The position numbers and the translations under genes were made by a program. Of a DNA stretch of 39,038 nucleotides, positions 1 to 24,766 are shown one piece after another. The DNA lies in IMG/VR virus record IMGVR_UViG_3300027566_000158, positions 1-39,038 of that record; one strand, 5' to 3'. The notes beneath the pieces are model-generated. The model was not told where the DNA came from and did not search any database. It was given only the letters and a program-made list of their open reading frames with translations. The stretch is from a virus (lineage: Duplodnaviria > Caudoviricetes). Positions within the stretch are counted from its first letter, which is position 1. Each line of letters begins with the position of its first letter.

Positions 1-1619
1 TATTTTTTTTTAGAACTTCCCCATAATGTTATATCAACATCTCCAGTAGAGCTATCCCAGGTTATTCTATCAACCAACACTGATATAAGATATTTTTTCA
101 TATCAACCGAAGCATCATCTATAGTATTATAAAAGGTATTTAAGTTATTAACTATTAGATCTAAATCTAGGTCTAGTTCAACTATTTTTGCTTTGTTTGA
201 GCTAAGCAATTCTATTTTAGATTTTATATCATTAATTTCTTTTTCACGTTTTTCAATTTCAGCTATTATATACTTCCCAGCAGTAGAACTTGGGTTTTCT
301 GATAGTTGCTTTACTAAAGTTCTTATAGCATCTTCATTAGCAGATAAAGAACTATTTAATAACTCCAATTCACTGGATGAATTATCTGCAGCAGCTATTT
401 GTTTTTTAACATTCTTTAATTCATTAAGTAATAGTCCATTATCTTTGGTAACTTTTTTGAGCTTATCTATAACAATTGGTTCAATCTCATCAGTTCGAAT
501 ATTTGAATTATCACACCTAGTTCCTTTGGAATCAATTTTCATTGAGCAGCCATAGTAAAATCTTCGTTGGCCATCTTTATCAGTTGATCCATGTAATACG
601 GTCATAGGAGATCCACATTTACCGCATCTTATTAATCCAGTTAAAAGAGCATTATGAGTTTTACCAAGCCTAGGAGCTTTACTTTTATTAGTTTTTAAAG
701 TATCCTGAATTTTCAACCATGCATTAGCATCAATTATACCTTCATGTTTAGCTATAGCTGCAACCCATTCTTCAGTATCCCTATATTGTTTTTTACCTTT
801 CTTTTTATTATAAGTAAGTATTCCATGCTTACTATCAGGAGTACCAACACAAGTAATATCTTTATCTCTAAGGAACTCAAATACTTTATCATTTGCTCTA
901 ACGTAAGTAGAACTTTGAAGCAAATCAGAAACAGATCTAACATTCCAATCAGCTCCAAGTTTAGTTTTAAAATTGTTTTCTAATAAGTACTGGTTAACTT
1001 GCCTTAACGATTTTAACTCTAGGTATTTTTCATAAATTAGTTTTACTAGCTTTAGCTCATTATCTACTGGAGACAACTTATACATAACTCTTTCTTTATA
1101 TTCATGGTCCATGAATATGATTTTTTCACTTTCAAAACCTAAGGGAGTTTGTCCTCCAAGCCATCTTCCAGACTTAGCAAGTTCAAGCATGTTGTCTCTA
1201 ACTCTTTCTGCGATAGTTTCACGTTCAAGCTGGGCGAAAACAGATGCTATATATACCATTGCCTTACCCATTGGAGTGCTAGTATCAAATTGTTCTTTAA
1301 TACTCACAAAAGAAATATTATTATCCTGTAAAAGCTCAAGAGTAGAGGAGAAATCGGCTACATTACGACTTATTCTATCTAATCTATAGCAAATAAGTAC
1401 ATCAAATTTATTATTTTTAGCATCTTTAACAAGTTCCTGGAATTTAGGTCTATTAGTGTTCCCACCACTAAATCCTTCGTCTTCATATACAAGGAATTCT
1501 GTAATGTTTTTATCTCTCAATTGGTTTTGAGCATAGTCTTTACACATTTGAACTTGGTTCTCTATACTTTCACCTTTACCGGTGAATTTAGATTTTCTAG
1601 AATAAATTGCTGCTTTCAT
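1..1619 (-). CDS. Large serine recombinase (phage integrase), ~539 aa; probable stop codon straddles the window edge
   Basis: Missing from the ORF track. Manual translation from ATG 1619: MKAAIYSRKSKFTGKGESIENQ...YEDEGFSGGNTNRP...YRLDRISRN...FDTSTPMGKAM...FAQLERETIAER; zinc-ribbon CGKC later; ends ...LWGSSKKK then TA| at 2-1; RBS AGAAAGGA upstream. Confidence 0.95.
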   Translation of the reverse strand, partial: MKAAIYSRKSKFTGKGESIENQVQMCKDYAQNQLRDKNITEFLVYEDEGFSGGNTNRPKFQELVKDAKNNKFDVLICYRLDRISRNVADFSSTLELLQDNNISFVSIKEQFDTSTPMGKAMVYIASVFAQLERETIAERVRDNMLELAKSGRWLGGQTPLGFESEKIIFMDHEYKERVMYKLSPVDNELKLVKLIYEKYLELKSLRQVNQYLLENNFKTKLGADWNVRSVSDLLQSSTYVRANDKVFEFLRDKDITCVGTPDSKHGILTYNKKKGKKQYRDTEEWVAAIAKHEGIIDANAWLKIQDTLKTNKSKAPRLGKTHNALLTGLIRCGKCGSPMTVLHGSTDKDGQRRFYYGCSMKIDSKGTRCDNSNIRTDEIEPIVIDKLKKVTKDNGLLLNELKNVKKQIAAADNSSSELELLNSSLSANEDAIRTLVKQLSENPSSTAGKYIIAEIEKREKEINDIKSKIELLSSNKAKIVELDLDLDLIVNNLNTFYNTIDDASVDMKKYLISVLVDRITWDSSTGDVDITLWGSSKKK

Positions 1620-1635
1620 TATTAACATCCTTTCT

Positions 1636-1670
1636 AAAAAATAAGACCGAACTATAATAGTTCAGCCTAT
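1636..1670 (-). terminator. Terminator-like hairpin immediately upstream of the integrase RBS
   Basis: Minus strand ATAGGCTGAACTAT-T-ATAGTTCGGTCTTAT followed by TTTTT. Confidence 0.6.
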
Positions 1671-1782
1671 CTAATAAGTTTAAGTATAGCGATATAAGAA
1701 ATATAAATCCATATCTAATGTTATACTATTATTTTAAAAATTAATCTATTATGAATGATTTACCATGTAGTAAGTAAATATA

Positions 1783-1822
1783 AATAAAAACCCACTACAA
1801 GTATTACTTACTAATGGGCTTT
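1783..1822 (-). terminator. Rho-independent terminator after the radical SAM gene
   Basis: Minus strand GCCCATTAGTAAGT-AAT-ACTTGTAGTGGGT followed by TTTTATTT. Confidence 0.6.
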
Positions 1823-1873
1823 GGAAACAATAGAACTAATATAAAAAGCATTTGTAAAAATATGATTTTATAT

Positions 1874-2632
1874 TTATGAAATTGTACCGTTTTTAATATG
1901 ATAATCAATTTTATTTGTTGTACAAAACTCAATAACTTGATTACTTAATAAATTATAATATTCTTTATGATTCTTATATTTTGTAACTAAAGGATTATAA
2001 TTCATTCTGCCAAATATAATTTTATCAACAAATTTTATAGAGTCTAATAAAGTAATTAAATCTTGCTCAACAATATTCGGTGTTGGATATGGCTCAATAC
2101 TAACCCAGGTTTTAAATCCTTTATCATGAAGATATTTTAAGCTTTCAATTCTATCAGAAATTGGTGATGAATAGGGTTCAAATTTGTTTCTAAATTGCTC
2201 ATTAAGTGAGACTAAAGTTATGCCATATTCATTTTCTTTTGATAAATATGCAAGCTCTCTTGGAAGAAATCCTTTTGTAAGAGCAGTACATTTTATATTA
2301 TTAGAATTAAGGATTTTTATTAATTCAATACTCATGCTTGTTATTTCGGAATAACCATACATGAAAGGATCCGTAGTAAAACATAAATGAACAGAGTCTA
2401 TTTTATTCTTATATTTAGGAATTTCTTTAATAAGTAACTCTTTTGCGTTAATAACTAATTTGGGATTACACCAATCCTCGTAACTTTTTGCACGTCCAAA
2501 TCTTTTAGCCATCATATAAGCATAGCATGGGTAGGTACATCCGTGTGAACATCCTTGAACGTGGTTTATAGTGTAATCTCCATATTCAACATCTGTCTTA
2601 TATAGTAAACTTTTTCTTTGAATATATTCCAT
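1874..2632 (-). CDS. Radical SAM protein, spore-photoproduct-lyase-like (SplB/COG1533-type), 252 aa
   Basis: TINHVQGCSHGCTYPCYA cluster motif (CX3CX3C), TTDPF, LTK, SIEP motifs typical of SPL-like proteins; ATG 2632 has RBS GGAAAAGAGGG, so it is preferred over the track's 2671 start. Confidence 0.85.
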   Translation of the reverse strand: MEYIQRKSLLYKTDVEYGDYTINHVQGCSHGCTYPCYAYMMAKRFGRAKSYEDWCNPKLVINAKELLIKEIPKYKNKIDSVHLCFTTDPFMYGYSEITSMSIELIKILNSNNIKCTALTKGFLPRELAYLSKENEYGITLVSLNEQFRNKFEPYSSPISDRIESLKYLHDKGFKTWVSIEPYPTPNIVEQDLITLLDSIKFVDKIIFGRMNYNPLVTKYKNHKEYYNLLSNQVIEFCTTNKIDYHIKNGTIS

Positions 2633-2659
2633 AAATTTTCCCTCTTTTCCTTTGTCTAT

Positions 2660-2688
2660 ATTATATATCAAACAGATGTTCTGGTCAA
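2660..2688 (-). promoter_or_regulatory. Sigma-A promoter of the radical SAM gene with a LexA (Cheo/SOS) box in the spacer
   Basis: Minus strand TTGACC (2688-2683), 17 nt, TATAAT (2665-2660); spacer contains GAAC-ATCT-GTTT (2681-2670), matching Firmicute LexA consensus GAAC-N4-GTTY. Confidence 0.8.
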
Positions 2689-2695
2689 TTTAGTA

Positions 2696-3532
2696 TTATT
2701 TTTTACATATAAGATCTTTTCCAATTAAATGATGAGCTATATTATTTCCAAGTTTAATTGCTTTTTTATCCGGATTGGACATTGCAAAATAAAATAAAAA
2801 CAGTGGGGCATTATTACTATTTCTTAAACATAAAGGACATGTTACAGAAGGATATAGAGTTTTTAATCGCTCCCTAAAATAACAGCAAATTTCTTTTTCA
2901 TTAACACGTTTTACAGCAGTATTTCCATCAATATTATCTAAAAAATTAAACTGAGGATCTTTTTTATATAAAGCTTCCTCCCAATTTGTCTCTCCAAACA
3001 ACCTGTCTAAACTCTTCTTATTTGTATCTAAAATATTCCCTTTATTAGGCATATACCTTGCAGCGTAGGAAATAGGGTATAGACACCAAACATCTATTGC
3101 TTTAGTACTAGCTATTTTTGAGTGTGTAGAAAAATCAAATTCAAAACTGAATGGATCTATAAAAGCCAAAGCTCTGTAAAACGTCCAGTTATATTTTTTT
3201 ACTATCTTATTAATTTCTAAATTGCAATCCCCATTAATTATGGTAATTTTCTTATTAGGATATAGTTTTTTTAATTCTTGTAACTCGTTACACTTTTCTT
3301 CGTCATATTCAATAAATATATATTCATCAAATCTATCAATCTGTAAGGCAATCTTAGCTGAGCCATCCACAAATCCAGCCTTTGTATCACATCGACCGGT
3401 TCCTGCGAAAGCATCAATATAAATAAATTTATATTTTAATTTTTTTAAGGCAGTTGCATATGCTTTTAAGTAGTTTTCTATAACAGTAAGTTTTATTAAT
3501 GTCCATGCACCTCCAAATTTTTGTTTTGACAT
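2696..3532 (-). CDS. tcmP: Three-Cys-motif partner protein TcmP family (SAM-dependent methyltransferase fold)
   Basis: FGGAWTLIKL..YLKAY, YIDAFAGTG (motif I), GS..AL, FIE, GDCN, AFIDPF, C-terminal N..N.PLF.FYF; ATG 3532 with RBS AGAGGTG. Confidence 0.85.
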   Translation of the reverse strand: MSKQKFGGAWTLIKLTVIENYLKAYATALKKLKYKFIYIDAFAGTGRCDTKAGFVDGSAKIALQIDRFDEYIFIEYDEEKCNELQELKKLYPNKKITIINGDCNLEINKIVKKYNWTFYRALAFIDPFSFEFDFSTHSKIASTKAIDVWCLYPISYAARYMPNKGNILDTNKKSLDRLFGETNWEEALYKKDPQFNFLDNIDGNTAVKRVNEKEICCYFRERLKTLYPSVTCPLCLRNSNNAPLFLFYFAMSNPDKKAIKLGNNIAHHLIGKDLICKK

Positions 3533-3701
3533 AATTATCACCTCTATTTAAAGAATAATACTTATATGTTTCAAATGAATGTTTAAGGGTTGGTGCTCAA
3601 AGGCTCTCGAAATAGTCGTTATTTTATAATTCGACACAATGAAACAAAATACAACAAAATACTTTATTGGAATATTTTTCTCCGACTAGTTTAAAAAATA
3701 C

Positions 3702-4139
3702 TCAAATTATTTTTAATTTGAGTTTAAGTAGATCTATTGGAAGATTTTCCGCAGCAGCAACTTGATCTAAAGTTAGGTTTTGATACTTTTGCAATACTGC
3801 GTTATTAATAAGTAACTCAGCGGCAAATGTATTAGCTTCTATTTCATATCTGCTCTTTATAAAATGAGTGTTGCTTTCAAGAAATAAGATATTTAGCTTT
3901 GTGTGTAGGATAGCATGTCCTAATTCATGAGCACAAACAATCTTTTGTTCATGTTCTGATAAACTATTGTTGATATACATAATCTTATTTCTCTGAAAGT
4001 ACTGATAGAAACCTCTAACGCTAGGATCTAATTCTTTTAATATTACTGTACAATGTAAACAATCTGCTAATTCAATAGGGTCATTAGTTTTATATTTTTT
4101 TATTAGTTTGGACACTATTTTTTCTATACTTTTGTTCAA
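3702..4139 (-). CDS. ImmA/IrrE family metallopeptidase (anti-repressor protease)
   Basis: CAHELGH and EIEANTFAAELL motifs; directly downstream of the repressor. Confidence 0.92.
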   Translation of the reverse strand: MNKSIEKIVSKLIKKYKTNDPIELADCLHCTVILKELDPSVRGFYQYFQRNKIMYINNSLSEHEQKIVCAHELGHAILHTKLNILFLESNTHFIKSRYEIEANTFAAELLINNAVLQKYQNLTLDQVAAAENLPIDLLKLKLKII

Positions 4140-4182
4140 ATATATTACCTCCAGGTAACGACTATTAACCCATATAATTAAT

Positions 4183-4650
4183 TTATTTATCTTTCTTATT
4201 ATATTTCTTAGGAGTATATTTTTCTTTATTCTTTTGTTTTGCTAGTGCCATGCCCATTTCCATAGCTTGAAGTATACTCTCTATAGCTTCAGGGGTAGCT
4301 GGTTCTCCATCGAACATTAAACCTTCTGAATTTTCTAGTTGTTCTTTAGTTTGTTTTAATATCTTAGAAATGTCTTTTTCATCTTTTTTAGTGAGTTTAG
4401 TTTCTTCATTTAATTTGTTATCTATATAACCAGACAATTTCATTAAGTACTCATAAGATGTCTTATAAGCATTACTAATTAATTGTAGTGTTTCTGGAGT
4501 AGGCTTAATAGGTGCATTATTTCTAGGATCAAATCCTTTTTCTAATGTACTTAAATATGAGTGGCTAATGCCTATAGACTTAGCTGCATCTCTTAAGCTT
4601 AATTTTAATTCAGTTCTTTTACTTATTAGAAAAGTACTTAAATCTTCCAT
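4183..4650 (-). CDS. XRE-family HTH phage repressor (ImmR/CI-like)
   Basis: LSLRDAAKSIGISHSYLSTLEKG HTH; C-terminal LMFDGEP...KYTPKKY tail; divergent from cro. Confidence 0.9.
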   Translation of the reverse strand: MEDLSTFLISKRTELKLSLRDAAKSIGISHSYLSTLEKGFDPRNNAPIKPTPETLQLISNAYKTSYEYLMKLSGYIDNKLNEETKLTKKDEKDISKILKQTKEQLENSEGLMFDGEPATPEAIESILQAMEMGMALAKQKNKEKYTPKKYNKKDK

Positions 4651-4672
4651 TTAAAAACCACCTCACTAATAT

Positions 4673-4792
4673 TGTAATGCAAACATTACAAAAATAAAAA
4701 TAAAATTTATAAATATTATGTATTACTTGCTTGACAATGTGTAATACTAGTATTACAATAAATACATAAGGAGGTGTAATACATGACGAACA
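4673..4792. promoter_or_regulatory. Lysis/lysogeny switch: 18-bp palindromic operators and the rightward promoter
   Basis: TGTAATGCAAACATTACA 4673-4690, TGTATTACTTGCTTGACA 4719-4736, TGTAATACTAGTATTACA 4740-4757 (perfect), TGTAATACATGACGAACA 4775-4792; + strand TTGACA 4731-4736, 17 nt, TACAAT 4754-4759. Confidence 0.85.
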
Positions 4793-5004
4793 CTGTAAGA
4801 AAGTTAAGAACTCAACTTAATCTAACCCAAGAAGAATTAGCTGAAAAACTAAACGTAGCACGACCAACAATTTCAAATATAGAAAGAGGTGTCTATACGC
4901 CTAATGGAAACTTAATGATACGTATAGCTAATTTCTTTGGAATACCAGCAGAACAAATTTTTTTTGAAGATGGTGTAATGCAAGAAGAACAAAAGGTTGT
5001 ATAA
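4783..5004 (+). CDS. Cro-like XRE HTH regulator
   Basis: LTQEELAEKLNVARPTISNIERG; RBS AAGGAGGT; first gene of the early operon. Confidence 0.9.
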   Translation: MTNTVRKLRTQLNLTQEELAEKLNVARPTISNIERGVYTPNGNLMIRIANFFGIPAEQIFFEDGVMQEEQKVV

Positions 5005-5852: not shown

Positions 5853-5969
5853 ATGAATATTAAAGTTTTTAAAAGCTATATGAGAGCTTGTGAAAGCATT
5901 GGAGTAAGACCAACTTGGGAAGGACTAAATAGATTTAAAAATAAATTTGAGGAGGAAAAAAGTGAGTAA
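5853..5969 (+). CDS. Small hypothetical protein, 38 aa
   Basis: RBS AAGGAGG; MNIKVFKSYMRACESIGVRPTWEGLNRFKNKFEEEKSE; overlaps start of next gene. Confidence 0.6.
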   Translation: MNIKVFKSYMRACESIGVRPTWEGLNRFKNKFEEEKSE

Positions 5970-7593
5970 AATTAAAGTTTTAAAAATTAATAACTTCCTT
6001 GGTGTTGATGAAATTGGATTAGAAGCATCAAAGATAAATATCATTAAAGGTCCAAAAGGAAGTGGAAAGAGCAGCATAATAGAGGCTATCGAAAAGACAT
6101 TTACAAATAAAAATAGACGTACTGAGATAGTTAAACATGGAGCAGAAGAAGCAACTTTGTATGTAGAGCTTGATGATGGATTAGAAATAGATAGAAGAAT
6201 AAGAACTGATAAGGCTGATTATCTAAAATGTAGAAAAGAGGATGTAGCAATTCCAAGTACAGAAAAATTTCTTAGAAGCCTTATAAATGGAGATATCTTT
6301 AGACCTGTTGATTGGGTAAACATGGGGATAAAAGAACAAACAAAATCAATTTTAAGTATGTTGGAGATAGGCTGGTCAATGGAAGATATAGAAGCATGGT
6401 TTGGGGAAACTCCTTCTAATATCGATTTTAATCAGCATATTCTCCAAATACTCAAAGCTATAGAACTAAAGTACTACAATGATAGGCAAGAAGTCAATAG
6501 AGAGATAAATGAGCTAAAGACACAAATTAAGGTTATTCTAGATGAACTCCCAGCAGAATATGATGGCGAGATTTGGAGAGATAAGAAAGTCCAGGAATAT
6601 TATAACAAAGTTGCAGAAGCTCAAAAGATTAATCATTGGATTGAAGAGGCTAAAGCATTACAGTCTAATTTTGAAGATAAAGTCAACTCTATAAAAGCTA
6701 ATGCAGAAAGTGAAAAGTCTAGGATTCAAATGAAGTATAAAGACCAAAGACAAGATATTAAGGACATTATAGAACTTTCCAAAAATAAAATAGAGAAAGC
6801 TAAAGAGTTTATAAATAATTCTCAAGAAAAGGTTCAGCTAGAACATCAAAAGTTAGATGCACAATTAGAAAATGAGTACCAAGCATTATTAGAAAAGTAC
6901 AGAGAATTAAAAGATAAAAAAGAGAAAGAAGTTATGGCAGAAGCAGATAATCAGAAAGATCTAATTCACATTCAAGAAAATAAGATAACACAAAAGAATG
7001 AAGAGTTAAATTCACTTGATAATCTTGAAAAACAGGAACTGAAAGCAGTAGATGAAAAAACTGTCTCTGAAATTGAAAAAGAAGAGATTAGAGTAGGAAA
7101 AGCTGCTAATTATCTTAAGGAAAATGAAGTAACTGATATTGAGCCACTCCAAAATGAAGCTGATAAAGTTGCTGAAATGCAAAGTTACCTTAGACAGTGG
7201 GATATGATGCTTAATATTCGTGATGGAAAACTAGCTGAAAAGGAACGATATTCAGAATTACTTACTGCACGAATTGATAAAGCAAGAGTTCTTCCAGGAG
7301 AACTTCTTAAAACTGCGAAGATGCCTGTTGAAGGTATATCAGTTGATGAAAATGGCTTAATTAGAATTAACAGTACCCTTATAGATGGCTTAAGTGATGG
7401 AGAAAAACTTGAACTTGCTATGAGAATTGCTAGAGCTCAAGCTGGTGAATTAAAAGTTATTTGTATAGATCGTTTCGAAAGCCTAAATCCAGCAGCACAG
7501 AAAAAACTTATAGATGAAATGTCTAAGGATGATTATCAGTATTTTGTTACTAACACAATGTCAGATGAATTTGAAATTGAAAAAATAGGGTAA
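5962..7593 (+). CDS. SMC/Rad50-like coiled-coil ABC ATPase (phage recombination module)
   Basis: Walker A GPKGSGKSS, long coiled coil, signature LSDGE, Walker B ICIDRFE; GTG 5962 after GAGGAGG. Confidence 0.88.
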   Translation: MSKIKVLKINNFLGVDEIGLEASKINIIKGPKGSGKSSIIEAIEKTFTNKNRRTEIVKHGAEEATLYVELDDGLEIDRRIRTDKADYLKCRKEDVAIPSTEKFLRSLINGDIFRPVDWVNMGIKEQTKSILSMLEIGWSMEDIEAWFGETPSNIDFNQHILQILKAIELKYYNDRQEVNREINELKTQIKVILDELPAEYDGEIWRDKKVQEYYNKVAEAQKINHWIEEAKALQSNFEDKVNSIKANAESEKSRIQMKYKDQRQDIKDIIELSKNKIEKAKEFINNSQEKVQLEHQKLDAQLENEYQALLEKYRELKDKKEKEVMAEADNQKDLIHIQENKITQKNEELNSLDNLEKQELKAVDEKTVSEIEKEEIRVGKAANYLKENEVTDIEPLQNEADKVAEMQSYLRQWDMMLNIRDGKLAEKERYSELLTARIDKARVLPGELLKTAKMPVEGISVDENGLIRINSTLIDGLSDGEKLELAMRIARAQAGELKVICIDRFESLNPAAQKKLIDEMSKDDYQYFVTNTMSDEFEIEKIG

Positions 7594-17479: not shown

Positions 17480-18520
17480 GTGATAAAAATTATAGGATTA
17501 ATTGATGTAGATGGTAAGCTGCCTAATTTAGCATTAATGAAAATAAGTACTTATTATAAGGGATTAGGTGAGGATGTAGAATTTGTTCAAGAGGATAGAG
17601 ATTATGAAAAAATATATGCAAGCTGCTTGTTTACATGGAATCGTAAGACTTGTATAGAGTTGCTTGAAAAGTATGGAGACAAGCTCGTATTAGGCGGTAC
17701 AGGATGGGATTTTATAGAGGCAAATGGAAAACTAGTAGAGGTTACTCATACAGAACTACCGGAAGAGATAGAAAATAGTAAGCCTGATTACTACCTTTAC
17801 ACTGTAGATATGATATATGAAAAAGCGTGTAAAGGAGGAATAGCCACAAAAGTTTCTAAGCTTAAAAAGGCTCAAACTATTGTAGATATGGGAATAGGAT
17901 TTACTTCAAGAGGTTGTGTAAATAACTGTCGGTTTTGTATAGTACCTAAAAAGGAAGGCAAGCTTCACAAAGTAGCTGGAATTAAAGATATCATCAACCC
18001 TAGATCAAATATAATCACACTATACAATAGCAACCTTCCGGCACAAGAGGATTGCATAGATATATTGCATGAAATAAGGGATAGAAAACTTAAGGTTGAT
18101 TTATCTCAAGGGATTGATGTTCGATTACTGACAGAAGAAAAAGCAAAAGCACTAAGTGAAGTAAATCACCTTAGGAGCTTGCACTACGCTTGGGACTTAA
18201 TGGAGAGTGAGTCTAAAGTTATTGAGGGGATTAAGTTACTTAAGAAATTTGTTAAACCATGGAAACATATGTGTTTCATATTAACTGGATTTAATACAAG
18301 CTTTGATGAAGATATGTACAGGATAAAAAAGCTTCAGGAGCTAGGTATAAAGCCATATGTAATGAAATATAATAAGCGGACTGATGATATTAGGCTTAAT
18401 CAATTGGCAGGATGGGTTAATAGTCGAAAGCATACTGTTTGCAGTTTTGAAGAATTTCAACCATGGATAAATGCACAGGTTAAATATAATCAGATAAGCA
18501 TGTTTAATGGGGTGAGATAA
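17480..18520 (+). CDS. Phage radical SAM protein
   Basis: FTSRGCVNNCRFCIVP (CX3CX2C); N-terminal IGLIDVDGKLPNLALMKIS and LGGTG; stop overlaps next start (TAATG). Confidence 0.88.
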   Translation: MIKIIGLIDVDGKLPNLALMKISTYYKGLGEDVEFVQEDRDYEKIYASCLFTWNRKTCIELLEKYGDKLVLGGTGWDFIEANGKLVEVTHTELPEEIENSKPDYYLYTVDMIYEKACKGGIATKVSKLKKAQTIVDMGIGFTSRGCVNNCRFCIVPKKEGKLHKVAGIKDIINPRSNIITLYNSNLPAQEDCIDILHEIRDRKLKVDLSQGIDVRLLTEEKAKALSEVNHLRSLHYAWDLMESESKVIEGIKLLKKFVKPWKHMCFILTGFNTSFDEDMYRIKKLQELGIKPYVMKYNKRTDDIRLNQLAGWVNSRKHTVCSFEEFQPWINAQVKYNQISMFNGVR

Positions 18521-20049
18521 TGAAACAAATAAGCCTACTAGATGAAATTATAGTGGACAACTTCGCTGGAGGTGGAGGAGCTTCCACAGGAATAGAGTTA
18601 GCAATAGGACATAGTGTAGAAATTGCAATTAATCACGATCCAGCAGCTATAGCAATGCATAAGGCGAATCATCCTCAGACAAAGCATTATTGTGAATCTG
18701 TTTGGGAAGTTGATCCAGTGAAGGCTGTAAGAGGTAGAAGAGTTGGTTTAGCTTGGTTTAGTCCAGATTGTAAGCATTTTTCAAAGGCAAAGGGAGGAAA
18801 ACCATGTGATAAAAAAATAAGAGGTTTAGCATGGATTGTACTAAAATGGGCTGCTCTAGTTAGGCCACGGGTGATTATGCTTGAAAATGTAGAGGAGTTT
18901 CAGACTTGGGGGCCTTTAAATAGAAGAAAACATCCTATAAAAAGCAAAAAAGGAGAAACTTATTGGAAATGGCGAAGGCAACTTGAAGCTTTAGGATATG
19001 TAGTTGATACAAGAGAACTGATTGCAGCAGATTATGGAGCACCAACAAAGAGAAAGCGTTTTTTCATGGTTGCGAGATGTGATGATCAACCTATTGTATG
19101 GCCTAAAAAAACTCATGGATACAGAAATAGCGGAGAAGTCAAAGATGGAATACTAAAACCTTATGTTCCGGCAGCTGAGATTATTGATTGGAGTATTCCT
19201 TGTAAAAGCATATTTGGTAGAAAGAAGCCACTTGCGGAAAACACTATGAAACGTATAGCAAAAGGCATACAAAAGTTTGTAGTTGAAAGTCCTGAGCCGT
19301 TTATAATGCAGATTGGTCAAACTGGATTCACGAAAGATAGGAATAAATCAATTCATGAACCATTAACAACAATAGTAAGTAAAGCTGAGCATTGTTTAGT
19401 AACTCCATACCTAATGGTGAATACGACTGGTCATTCCGGTGGAACAGTAGAAGAACCAGTTCATACAATTACAACAGGTGGCCATCATACTTTAATTACT
19501 CCATATTTGATTCAATATCATTCAGAAACTACTAAAGAAGGAGTTAGAGGACAGTCTATTAAAGAACCAATCATGACATTAGATAGCTCACCTAGATATG
19601 GATTAGTAAGTGCTTTTATTATACAAATGAATAAAAATATGATAGGAACTGATATGAAAGAACCTATTAATACCATTGTTGCAGGACCAGGACATATAGG
19701 CGAAGTAAGAGCTTTCTTAATTAAATATTATGGAAAAGGAGTAGGACAGGACATAAACGAGCCATTGGGCACAATAGTTAGTAAAGATAGATTTGGACTA
19801 GTTACAATTTATGGCCAAGACTATCAAATAGTTGATATAGGTATGAGAATGCTAGAACCGCATGAGTTATTTGCAGCACAAGGATTTCCAGAGAATTATA
19901 TTATCGACAAAGATTATACTGGAAGGAAGTATCCAAAGACAAAACAAGTTGCAAGATGTGGAAATGCGGTACCTCCTCCATTTGCAGAAGCCTTAGTGAG
20001 AGCTAATTTACCTGAGTTGTGTGAAAATAAATTAAAAGAAGTTATTTAA
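18520..20049 (+). CDS. DNA (cytosine-5) methyltransferase
   Basis: DNFAGGGG motif I, SPDC catalytic motif, LENV, RKRFF, AQGFP, CGNAV. Confidence 0.95.
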   Translation: MKQISLLDEIIVDNFAGGGGASTGIELAIGHSVEIAINHDPAAIAMHKANHPQTKHYCESVWEVDPVKAVRGRRVGLAWFSPDCKHFSKAKGGKPCDKKIRGLAWIVLKWAALVRPRVIMLENVEEFQTWGPLNRRKHPIKSKKGETYWKWRRQLEALGYVVDTRELIAADYGAPTKRKRFFMVARCDDQPIVWPKKTHGYRNSGEVKDGILKPYVPAAEIIDWSIPCKSIFGRKKPLAENTMKRIAKGIQKFVVESPEPFIMQIGQTGFTKDRNKSIHEPLTTIVSKAEHCLVTPYLMVNTTGHSGGTVEEPVHTITTGGHHTLITPYLIQYHSETTKEGVRGQSIKEPIMTLDSSPRYGLVSAFIIQMNKNMIGTDMKEPINTIVAGPGHIGEVRAFLIKYYGKGVGQDINEPLGTIVSKDRFGLVTIYGQDYQIVDIGMRMLEPHELFAAQGFPENYIIDKDYTGRKYPKTKQVARCGNAVPPPFAEALVRANLPELCENKLKEVI

Positions 20050-21683: not shown

Positions 21684-22430
21684 ATGAGTTTACTTATTTC
21701 TAGATATAGTGATTTATCTGATGGAATTATTTCAGCAGCAAAAGCATTAAACAGGAAACCAAAAGAAAGAAAGATAATTTTCATAACATCTGGTATTTGT
21801 GTATTAGCGTCTAGTTTAGGGATAGTCATTGTTGATAAATATTTTAACAACGACCAGACTGTTATAGGATTATTGATTATTTTTCTATTGATTGTTAGTA
21901 TTACTTTTATGAGTTCTTTTATATCTTACTTTGTTAACGACAATAGCAGAACGCTTTCTGATCATTTAGAGAAATTAGCTCAAGAGAGAGATGAATTGAA
22001 TGATAAAATAAAAAAAGAAAATAATGTATTAGATGTTATAAAAGTCAACTTAAATCAATTAGATGAATATTATGCACTAAACAAGGTACAAGCTAGAAGA
22101 AGCTATTCGTTTAGTATAACTATGATTATTATAGGATTTATTGTATTAATTTCAGCAATTGTTTTATTGATATCTGGGAAAATAGCAATAAACATTACTA
22201 TAATTATAAGCTTATCGGGATTAATTTCGGAATTTATTGGTGCTACATCATTGATGCTTTATAAGGAGAGTACAAAACAAATACAAGTATTCTTTAATAA
22301 GCTTTCATACTTACAACATATTATGCTTGCGGTTGAATTAGCTGAAAAGGTTAATGCTGATAAAAGGGAAGAGCAAATCTCAATTATTATATCATCACTT
22401 ATAAAAAGTAATGAAAATATTTCAAATTAG
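21684..22430 (+). CDS. Multi-pass membrane protein with TRADD-N-associated-like 2TM C-terminal domain (moron)
   Basis: Two N-terminal TM segments, coiled coil, then EYYALNKVQARRSYSFS-TM-TM-SGLISEFIGAT..LYK....F; own promoter and terminator; very AT-rich. Confidence 0.7.
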   Translation: MSLLISRYSDLSDGIISAAKALNRKPKERKIIFITSGICVLASSLGIVIVDKYFNNDQTVIGLLIIFLLIVSITFMSSFISYFVNDNSRTLSDHLEKLAQERDELNDKIKKENNVLDVIKVNLNQLDEYYALNKVQARRSYSFSITMIIIGFIVLISAIVLLISGKIAINITIIISLSGLISEFIGATSLMLYKESTKQIQVFFNKLSYLQHIMLAVELAEKVNADKREEQISIIISSLIKSNENISN

Positions 22431-23328: not shown

Positions 23329-23532
23329 ATGAAGATTGGTGAAATTCTTAGGGCTAATCAACCGGATATATATACAAAACTAAATAAAAAGCCTAGAAGT
23401 AAAAAAGGAAGGAGGGGCAATCATTCAAAGAATAAAGAACCCTCCTTCTCTGATTTTAAACATATGATGAAGCATGATAGTTATAGTAGAGGTCCAGGAG
23501 GATCAATACGACAAAAGACATGGAGTGATTAG
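23329..23532 (+). CDS. Small basic hypothetical protein
   Basis: ORF track; MKHDSYSRGPGGSIRQ; RBS GGGGAGTG. Confidence 0.7.
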   Translation: MKIGEILRANQPDIYTKLNKKPRSKKGRRGNHSKNKEPSFSDFKHMMKHDSYSRGPGGSIRQKTWSD

Positions 23533-23533
23533 T

Positions 23534-24766
23534 ATGCAGTTAATAAATGTAATTTTACAAGAGATAAAACCTTATGAAAATAATCCAAGGAATAATGATG
23601 CTGCAGTAGATAAGGTTGTAGAGAGTATAAAAGAATTTGGTTTTAGAATCCCTATAATTGTGGACAAAGATAATATAATAATTGCTGGTCATACAAGATA
23701 TAAGGCTGCCAAGATATTGGGACTTAATGAGGTACCTGTTATTAAGTCAGAAGATTTGTCTCCAGAACAGGTGAGAGCATTTAGGATAATGGATAATAAG
23801 GCTTCTGAAATTGCAACATGGGATTATGAAGCTTTGCTTCAGGAGATGGAAAAACTAAAAATCTCAGATTATAACTTAGAGTTTACAGGTTTTGAGTTAA
23901 ATGAAATAGAAAGTATGATGGATAAATATAGTCCTAAAGAGATTACCATGGATGAAAGCTTTAATCTTGAAGAGCAACTTGAATTCATAGAGGAACCTAA
24001 GACAAAGAAAGGTGATTTGTGGTTACTAGGAAACCATAGACTATTATGTGGGGATAGTACTATAAAAGAAGATATAGAAAAGTTAATGAACGGACAGAAG
24101 GCTAAAATGGTATTTACAGATCCACCGTATAATGTTGCTTATGAAGGTAGCACAGAAGATAAGTTAACAATTCAAAATGATAATATGAGCCAAGAAGACT
24201 TTTATAACTTTCTGCTTAAAGTATTTTCGAATTATTTTGAACTTATGGAAGAAGGTGCTCCAATATATGTTTGTCATGCAGATAGTGAAGGAGAGAATTT
24301 TAGAAGAGCATACAGAGAGGCAGGGTTGAAGCTTGCAGAATGTATTATCTGGGTAAAAAATACCTTTGTTATAGGAAGACAAGATTATCATTGGAGGCAT
24401 GAACCTATTCTCTATGGGTGGAAAGAAGGTAAGGCCCATTACTTCGTAGATGATAGGACACAAGATACCGTATGGGAAATACCAAAACCAAATAGAAATG
24501 GAGAACATCCTACTATGAAACCATTAACTCTATGCGTTAAAGCTATAAAGAATAGCTGTAAGCCTAAGGAATTAGTGGTCGATTTATTTGGTGGAAGTGG
24601 CTCAACCTTAATTGCATCAACTGAGACAGAAAGAACATGCTATACCATGGAAATTGATGAAAAGTATTGTGATGTTATAGTCTTAAGATACATAAATCAA
24701 TATGGTCTTGAAAATGTTTATCTGGTAAGGGATGGAGTAAAGATTCATTATAGCAAAGTAAGCTAA
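23534..24766 (+). CDS. ParB-N domain fused DNA amino-methyltransferase (N6A/N4C)
   Basis: PYENNPR..IAGHTR ParB/Srx domain; TDPPY, HPTMKP, DLFGGSGST; ATG 23534 after GGAGTG. Confidence 0.92.
   Translation: MQLINVILQEIKPYENNPRNNDAAVDKVVESIKEFGFRIPIIVDKDNIIIAGHTRYKAAKILGLNEVPVIKSEDLSPEQVRAFRIMDNKASEIATWDYEALLQEMEKLKISDYNLEFTGFELNEIESMMDKYSPKEITMDESFNLEEQLEFIEEPKTKKGDLWLLGNHRLLCGDSTIKEDIEKLMNGQKAKMVFTDPPYNVAYEGSTEDKLTIQNDNMSQEDFYNFLLKVFSNYFELMEEGAPIYVCHADSEGENFRRAYREAGLKLAECIIWVKNTFVIGRQDYHWRHEPILYGWKEGKAHYFVDDRTQDTVWEIPKPNRNGEHPTMKPLTLCVKAIKNSCKPKELVVDLFGGSGSTLIASTETERTCYTMEIDEKYCDVIVLRYINQYGLENVYLVRDGVKIHYSKVS

Follow-up and report, generated by a model that had tools for sequence, protein, structure and literature searches.

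The 39,038-nucleotide (nt) stretch analysed here, IMGVR_UViG_3300027566_000158 (taken at full length and called the window below), belongs to a temperate phage of clostridial type, the best cultured matches of its integrase being Clostridium and Terrisporobacter phages. Its minus strand carries, in order, a repressor gene, immA, tcmP, a radical S-adenosylmethionine (radical-SAM) gene and a serine integrase gene. The subject of this work is the pair formed by tcmP and the radical-SAM gene, both of which are intact open reading frames (ORFs). The ORFs, the profile matches and two hairpins confirmed the layout given in the initial annotation, in which the pair stands between immA and the integrase, co-oriented with the repressor and closed by a terminator. 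The features are as follows.

1..1619, minus strand: large serine recombinase (integrase), reaching the window edge; PF00239, PF07508, PF13408
1644..1668, minus strand: second terminator-like hairpin, immediately preceding the integrase; -12.1 kcal/mol
1740..3584, minus strand: span of the exchangeable cassette, as bounded by two other studies' contigs in which 1739 connects to 3585
1787..1822, minus strand: predicted intrinsic terminator closing the cassette; hairpin of -14.3 kcal/mol with a T-rich tail
1874..2632, minus strand: radical-SAM gene, 252 amino acids; PF04055; spore photoproduct lyase (SPL)/DUF5131 supergroup, C28-x3-C32-x3-C36
2660..2688, minus strand: predicted sigma-A promoter serving the radical-SAM gene only; -35 at 2683-2688, -10 at 2660-2665, 17-nt spacer, 11/12 consensus positions
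2670..2681, minus strand: predicted LexA (SOS) box of the clostridial GAAC-N4-GTTT type, within the promoter spacer
2696..3532, minus strand: tcmP, 278 amino acids; TIGR04474, PADLOC PDC-M41A; short form without the winged helix-turn-helix (wHTH) tail
3702..4139, minus strand: immA, an IrrE-like metallopeptidase gene; PF06114, E 6e-19
4183..4650, minus strand: helix-turn-helix (HTH) repressor gene; PF01381

The radical-SAM gene lies downstream of tcmP across a gap of 63 nt (2633-2695), and its alternative, longer TTG start at 2671 falls within the gene's own predicted promoter. Both genes had been described as AT-rich, which holds in so far as their GC contents (28.7% and 27.1%) are below that of the window (32.3%), but the difference is modest and the pair is no lower than immA (28.5%) or the repressor gene (28.6%). 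In contigs from two other studies (runs X2 and X6), 1739 is joined to 3585 across 1914 different letters, and 41 related slots between repressor/immA and integrase that lack the pair carry varied genes. Positions 1740-3584 are therefore exchangeable cargo, in line with the earlier placing of the pair in a slot that commonly holds defence or superinfection-exclusion genes of lysogens. A near-identical copy of the cassette on contig L181 shows a gap of one base in tcmP, possibly through misassembly, and a contig of run X1 is gapless. Compared with window positions 5947-7593, L181 (1-272) represents a sister phage, about 99% identical in the immunity module and cassette, with a different AAA gene opening its replication module.

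TcmP matches TIGR04474 at 183.8 bits (cut-off 53) and PADLOC model PDC-M41A (PDLC04635) with an E-value of 7e-74 over residues 2-271. Its structural model (predicted local distance difference test, pLDDT, 93) adopts a class I SAM methyltransferase fold, with Trm1 (Z 15.1) and the RlmJ family (Z 15.0/14.6) effectively tied as closest structures and RlmJ ranked first by Foldseek; the family and fold named at the outset were thus correct. PDB searches with the TcmP sequence or profile gave nothing significant, with RlmJ reaching only E about 0.09. The protein contains K14, D40-x-F-x-G-x-G46 and D126-P-F, and among 133 TcmPs spanning 10 families (<33% identity between families) D40, G46, D126 and P127 occur in 133/133 and K14 in 131/133. 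RlmJ is described as needing a helix-1 lysine and a motif IV aspartate, K18 and D164 (PMC3814359). Judged by position, TcmP K14 would correspond to RlmJ K18 and D126 to D164, and W149 aligns with RlmJ W195. Because the catalytic residues are near-invariant and match the essential positions of RlmJ, TcmP probably has amino-group methyltransferase activity. Long TcmPs additionally carry a PF22560 GMT-wHTH domain, above the cut-off in 2/7 tested.

The partner of TcmP, hereafter the enzyme, matches PF04055 at 47.8 bits, above the cut-off, and its predicted structure (pLDDT 91) shows the partial TIM barrel and three-Cys 4Fe-4S motif of the radical-SAM superfamily. The spacing of that motif, CX3CX3C, is invariant in 133 relatives and differs from the canonical CX3CX2C. 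SPL is the top fold match (Z 18.9, root-mean-square deviation 3.0, 232 residues aligned; next family Z 15.3), whereas profile alignment with hhalign gave DUF5131 at 96.7% (E 5e-10) against 55.8% for four clostridial SPLs, a thin template. The direct match to DUF5131 (PF07505) is 21.7 bits, under the cut-off of 28.9, and PDB sequence and profile searches returned nothing significant. SPL, MJ0683-like proteins and DUF5131 are reported to share one megacluster (PMC9477430). Judged from profiles and the model, the enzyme belongs to a pared-down family that is sister to DUF5131 and is not itself an SPL. The initial annotation had called it SPL-type instead of DUF5131; SPL is indeed its best fold, but its profile is closer to DUF5131 and the SPL repair features are missing. 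Nor is it an unusual partner, as had been implied, since the same family is the usual TcmP partner in the Clostridia sampled below.

Relatives of the enzyme number more than 7,900. We examined 100 loci found through the enzyme (4 duplicates) and 160 found through TcmP, many of them near-identical. At the former, tcmP lies directly upstream in 96/100, beyond an inserted integrase in 2, and the contig edge intervenes in 2. At the latter, the neighbour is DUF5131 in 94, this enzyme family in 60, another radical-SAM protein in 2 and a contig edge in 4, so that TcmP without a radical-SAM neighbour was found at 0/156 evaluable loci. Elsewhere too, then, tcmP and a radical-SAM gene are conserved neighbours, and the window's own TcmP has the adjacent three-Cys partner, the CX3CX3C gene 63 nt downstream. 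In an evenly drawn sample of Clostridia genomes (300 scored for the enzyme, with G101 left out, and 301 for TcmP) the enzyme was present in 8/300, two of them seed genomes, and TcmP in 13/301. Its 14 matches there stood beside this enzyme family (9), DUF5131 (3), another radical-SAM gene (1) or a contig end (1), making this family the commonest TcmP partner in the sample.

The two partners differ greatly in how fast they diverge. Across loci the median identity is 65% for the enzymes and 19% for their TcmPs; TcmP identity falls below 30% in 59 of the 563 locus pairs whose enzymes share 80% or more, and on a 101-row enzyme tree the TcmP family switches 43 times, compared with 53 when shuffled. 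The genes are coupled translationally or separated by at most 25 nt in 67/93 loci. Two loci, L010 (1946-4744) and L369 (G283:C198:13836-16596), hold two TcmP families in tandem with one shared radical-SAM gene, which fits one eraser or engine serving several writers. At L033 (4992-7893) and L084 (5001-7873) the enzyme and tcmP are convergent, with a tyrosine integrase gene in between. Among the neighbouring proteins of the pair loci (87 downstream, 88 upstream) no third conserved gene was found, and a conserved third cassette gene was accordingly rejected. A hand count of the same proteins, made with no background control, placed a restriction-modification gene nearest on one side in 23/96 loci.

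The predicted sigma-A promoter in the 63-nt gap, absent from the initial annotation, was the best of 20 found in 1500-4900 (11/12 matches). The LexA-type motif in its spacer follows the clostridial consensus given in PMC4234289; the window has 5 such matches against 1.44 expected and 3/100 shuffles reach 5, so the single box is not significant alone. Among relatives, a box occurs in 11/96 windows upstream of the enzyme compared with 22/5127 background windows, although one of the 11, inside tcmP, is probably a chance match. Boxes are present in 10/26 loci with a gap above 25 nt and in 1/67 coupled loci, and in the 10 spaced loci (the window and 9 relatives) they overlap the predicted promoter at repressing positions. 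Eight of these 10 sit in prophage repressor or integrase slots. A predicted operator of clostridial type thus overlaps the promoter and is kept in relatives as a minority trait. SplB-like genes have been reported under SOS control (PMC8565304, PMC3765255). Proteobacterial-type boxes precede 4/56 convergent DUF5131 genes compared with 56/4109 background windows. The idea that the SOS promoter serves mainly the integrase was rejected: a script found hairpin-plus-T terminators after the enzyme in 6/10 boxed loci, the same hairpin was recognised by eye at a seventh locus (L022), and at two boxed loci the next gene is not an integrase, although 5/41 control slots show that SOS-boxed genes do turn up here. 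In one clade of uncultured genomes resembling Bacilli/Mollicutes (L036, L040, L043, L048, L051, L052, L054, L056, L060, L061, L067, L071 and L073) the enzyme is preceded by an extended -10 promoter and no LexA box; the clade also holds four TcmP families beside near-identical enzymes.

At 4/29 held-out viral loci the enzyme occurs without a nearby TcmP, with its motifs intact, in early modules among replication, recombination and methylase genes:

L401, 2899-3750: orphan enzyme
L428, 2965-3750: orphan enzyme
L445, 728-1501: orphan enzyme
L447, 2944-3786: orphan enzyme

The records of these four loci, two of them complete genomes, gave no match to TIGR04474. The L401 gene has 41% GC in flanks of 28% and is 82% identical to a TcmP-paired enzyme, and on both grounds it looks like a recent capture. 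The same orphan is flanked by a phrog_9298 gene and a C5 cytosine methylase gene, a pair also present in the window (17480-20049, plus strand), where the phrog_9298 gene, a second and unrelated radical-SAM gene, overlaps the methylase gene by one base. In 50,697 cultured-phage records, which include duplicates, DUF5131 gave 181 matches and two TcmP queries gave 2 and 14; as single sequences, these queries can miss divergent TcmPs. With the TIGR04474 hidden Markov model, 0/4 of the DUF5131-matching records checked (three with the DUF5131 motif) contained TcmP, and the positive control was found. Gordonia phage Pytheas (L453 2498-4367, OP434460.1) carries convergent DUF5131 and TcmP genes in a repressor-IrrE-integrase slot, with no SOS box found before its DUF5131 gene; several related Gordonia phages also match TcmP.

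The distribution therefore follows the DarTG pattern, in which the writer is never without an eraser candidate (0/156) and the eraser candidate stands alone in phages (4 loci). By analogy, we favour the prediction that the TcmP/radical-SAM pair is a DarTG-like writer/eraser toxin-antitoxin defence system, to which we give a probability of about 0.5. TcmP would methylate the exocyclic amine of a purine in DNA, the mark would block replication of the phage and, unchecked, of the host, and the enzyme would remove or neutralise it. In the lysogen, tcmP would be read together with repressor-immA and the enzyme made by read-through; during SOS, when an ImmA-type prophage is induced too, the enzyme would additionally be made from its own LexA-boxed promoter. 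The phage would thereby safeguard replication in its own lytic cycle, and the cell would benefit from feedback protection. SOS-induced killing would hurt an SOS-induced prophage; at that point the enzyme is therefore expected to benefit the phage, by erasing a mark, finishing a modification or repairing. We propose that it recognises the chemical mark and not the TcmP protein, which would account for the free mixing of unrelated TcmP families with three or more radical-SAM lineages, and for the retention of the enzyme by phages that have no TcmP. As for chemistry, extrapolation from the SPL supergroup suggests that the 5'-deoxyadenosyl radical would abstract hydrogen from the N-methyl group, which would then be oxidised and released as formaldehyde. 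No radical-SAM enzyme of such demethylating chemistry was found in the literature searched, and we know of none. The orphan phage enzymes would be candidate counter-defence genes, that is, stolen antidotes.

Several observations weigh against this writer/eraser reading. Trm1 and RlmJ, the closest solved structures to TcmP, have RNA substrates, and m6A of the RlmJ kind as a rule does no harm in DNA; the TcmP of the window has no wHTH tail. When set beside the SPL repair features described in PMC3467042, the enzyme has no SPL N-terminal domain (the fold alignment begins at SPL residue 63) and no lesion-flipping beta-hairpin, the model being strandless over 208-242 and about 29 residues shorter there. 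The position of the H-donor Cys (SPL C140/C141) is F85 by a low-identity profile alignment, next to a C84 that is 98% conserved, and the N-terminal position that is a Cys in the clostridial SPLs compared has none in the enzyme, by alignments of equally low identity. An enzyme stripped of the N-terminal domain, hairpin and donor Cys may depend on a partner for presentation of its substrate. Chromosomal enzymes were never found alone (8/8 Clostridia genomes; 98/98 evaluable loci), and orphan enzymes often lie near phage DNA methylases. Broken genes were initially flagged for 15 TcmPs and 7 partners, most of them query-end artefacts that were dropped; what was left is a broken tcmP beside an intact partner in 6 events and the reverse in 1-2, which is not significant (p 0.13-0.29).

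The LexA box adds further difficulties for the same reading. It has about 4 origins on the tree, is found in 0/29 held-out viral loci (only 3 of which had a gap above 25 nt), precedes tcmP instead in 8 other loci, and occurs before a small gene in 5/41 control slots without the pair. Such SOS-boxed small genes lie just upstream of prophage integrases at L266 (4750-4998), L267, L268 (3827-4081), L350 (6392-6625) and L352; two clostridial ones that were scanned are HTH proteins, and they are possible LexA-controlled antirepressors. Taken together, the writer/eraser logic of the initial annotation gained indirect support from the one-way dependence, the orphans in phage early regions and the SOS box, whereas the mark, its erasure and the defence function are what we infer, the nearest folds of TcmP being RNA amino-methyltransferases.

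The strongest competitor, unlikely but not negligible, is sequential modification, in which TcmP methylates or flips a base at its own target and the enzyme builds the methyl group up into a bulkier modification or a methylene cross-link. This product would shield induced phage DNA from restriction, hence the SOS timing, or damage an invader, and TcmP would be an interchangeable specificity subunit. The close coupling of the genes in 67/93 loci agrees with this, as do the absence of the SPL flipping hairpin, the RlmJ-like K14/D126/W149 set that suggests m6A, the 8 loci with the entire operon behind an SOS box, and the methylases adjoining orphan enzymes. However, TcmPs of 12-20% identity stand beside enzymes 96-98% identical, so that a fixed interface between the proteins is improbable; a conserved nuclease that could read a protective mark is absent; a damaging step induced by SOS would harm the prophage at induction; and orphan enzymes exist in phage genomes without TcmP. 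Erasing is preferred over its rivals because of the one-way dependence, orphan capture, free partner mixing and lack of a nuclease, while sequential modification stays alive because of the missing hairpin, the possibly harmless m6A-type site and the orphans' methylase neighbours.

SOS damage tolerance is improbable. Here the enzyme would reverse an environmental or host-made DNA lesion as SPL does, aiding the phage at induction or infection, with TcmP as an accessory recognition factor and no role in defence. SPL as the best fold match, the SOS regulation of SplB-like genes together with the LexA box found here, and orphans in phage replication modules speak for it, but the distribution is patchy and mobile (8/300 Clostridia), the context is that of restriction islands, the SPL repair residues are not conserved, and the TcmP catalytic residues are invariant while the remainder diversifies. 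Slightly less probable again is an RNA (tRNA/rRNA) or free-nucleotide target, with TcmP poisoning translation by amino-methylation and the enzyme reversing or extending the mark. Trm1 and RlmJ are the nearest folds, the tail-less TcmP of the window would suit such a target, and the stripped core of the enzyme could accept a small substrate; set against this are the GMT-wHTH domains of long TcmPs (PF22560, 2/7), the SOS boxes, the action of the SPL supergroup on DNA, and the comparison of the RlmJ active site with DNA m6A methyltransferases in PMC3814359. Lastly, we rejected the idea that the pair works like a restriction system in which the enzyme is the nuclease: the enzyme persists where tcmP is broken or missing, and it cannot embody the specificities of TcmPs that are unrelated to each other.

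By sequence, the pair is a variant of the catalogued PADLOC candidates PDC-M41/M30 (TcmP TIGR04474 with DUF5131 PF07505), which are predictions originating from 10.1101/2024.01.29.577857 and unnamed in the main text there. The first gene is the same, matching the A component, the partner comes from the same radical-SAM supergroup, and the mobile and restriction-island contexts are shared, including the repressor-IrrE-integrase slot in Pytheas. In contrast, the PDC-M41 B component gave only 23.6 bits over enzyme residues 12-90 (about 365 bits for a true DUF5131), the partner belongs to a sister family with CX3CX3C and not CX6CX2C, and the predicted LexA-boxed promoter is internal to the operon here; the PADLOC B models barely detect the sister family. 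The proposed logic resembles that of DarTG and phage AdfN, with a DNA-marking writer, an enzymatic eraser and orphan erasers in phages, and phages are reported to carry orphan DarG1-like erasers against DarTG1 (10.1101/2024.07.11.602962). The two systems share no homology, and DarTG works by proven ADP-ribosylation and hydrolysis, whereas methyl and radical chemistry is predicted for the pair. SplB (TIGR04070; PDB 4fhc) and SOS-regulated COG1533 proteins share with the enzyme the best structural match, a Tyr after the third Cys (Y37) and the SOS link; they differ from it in their identity (13-14%), N-terminal domain and beta-hairpin, the residue at C140 (Phe in the enzyme), the Cys spacing and the partner gene. 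TcmP has the fold, motif X Lys, motif I and motif IV Asp-Pro of RlmJ (23S rRNA m6A2030) and Trm1 (tRNA m2,2G26), but at 11-17% identity, with D-P-Y/F instead of DPPY, and it is mobile, hypervariable and invariably next to a radical-SAM gene. The literature searched, which covered few subscription papers, yielded no functional work on TcmP or DUF5131, including on anti-phage activity; TcmP is named only in tables of PMC12445080 and PMC12429752.

Elsewhere on the plus strand, the window encodes a ParB-N fused N6/N4 DNA methylase (23474-24766) before the terminase genes, and a low-GC moron (21684-22430) with a CyanoTRADDas two-transmembrane domain (PF20712, E 3e-15) and no PHROG or PADLOC match, a possible second defence gene.

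More broadly, and tentatively, pairs of TcmP and an SPL-supergroup partner may constitute a widespread anti-phage class with oxygen-independent DNA demethylases, anaerobic counterparts of AlkB. In that wider proposal, sequence-variable methyltransferases would write replication-blocking N-methyl marks, a prophage eraser would be switched on through LexA at induction, and stolen erasers, namely orphan "Gp37/Gp68" DUF5131 genes and this enzyme family, would act in counter-defence. The Gordonia temperate phages with the pair offer a ready test system, and the orphan phage enzymes allow a rescue test. With more than 7,900 enzyme relatives and TcmP in 13/301 Clostridia, the pair is widely distributed, and the writer/eraser reading, if true, would assign a role to TcmP and DUF5131 together, both orphan families and the second of them frequent among cultured phages. 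It would also define a new defence class with methyl and radical chemistry, a radical-SAM nucleic-acid demethylase and methyltransferases of varied specificity.

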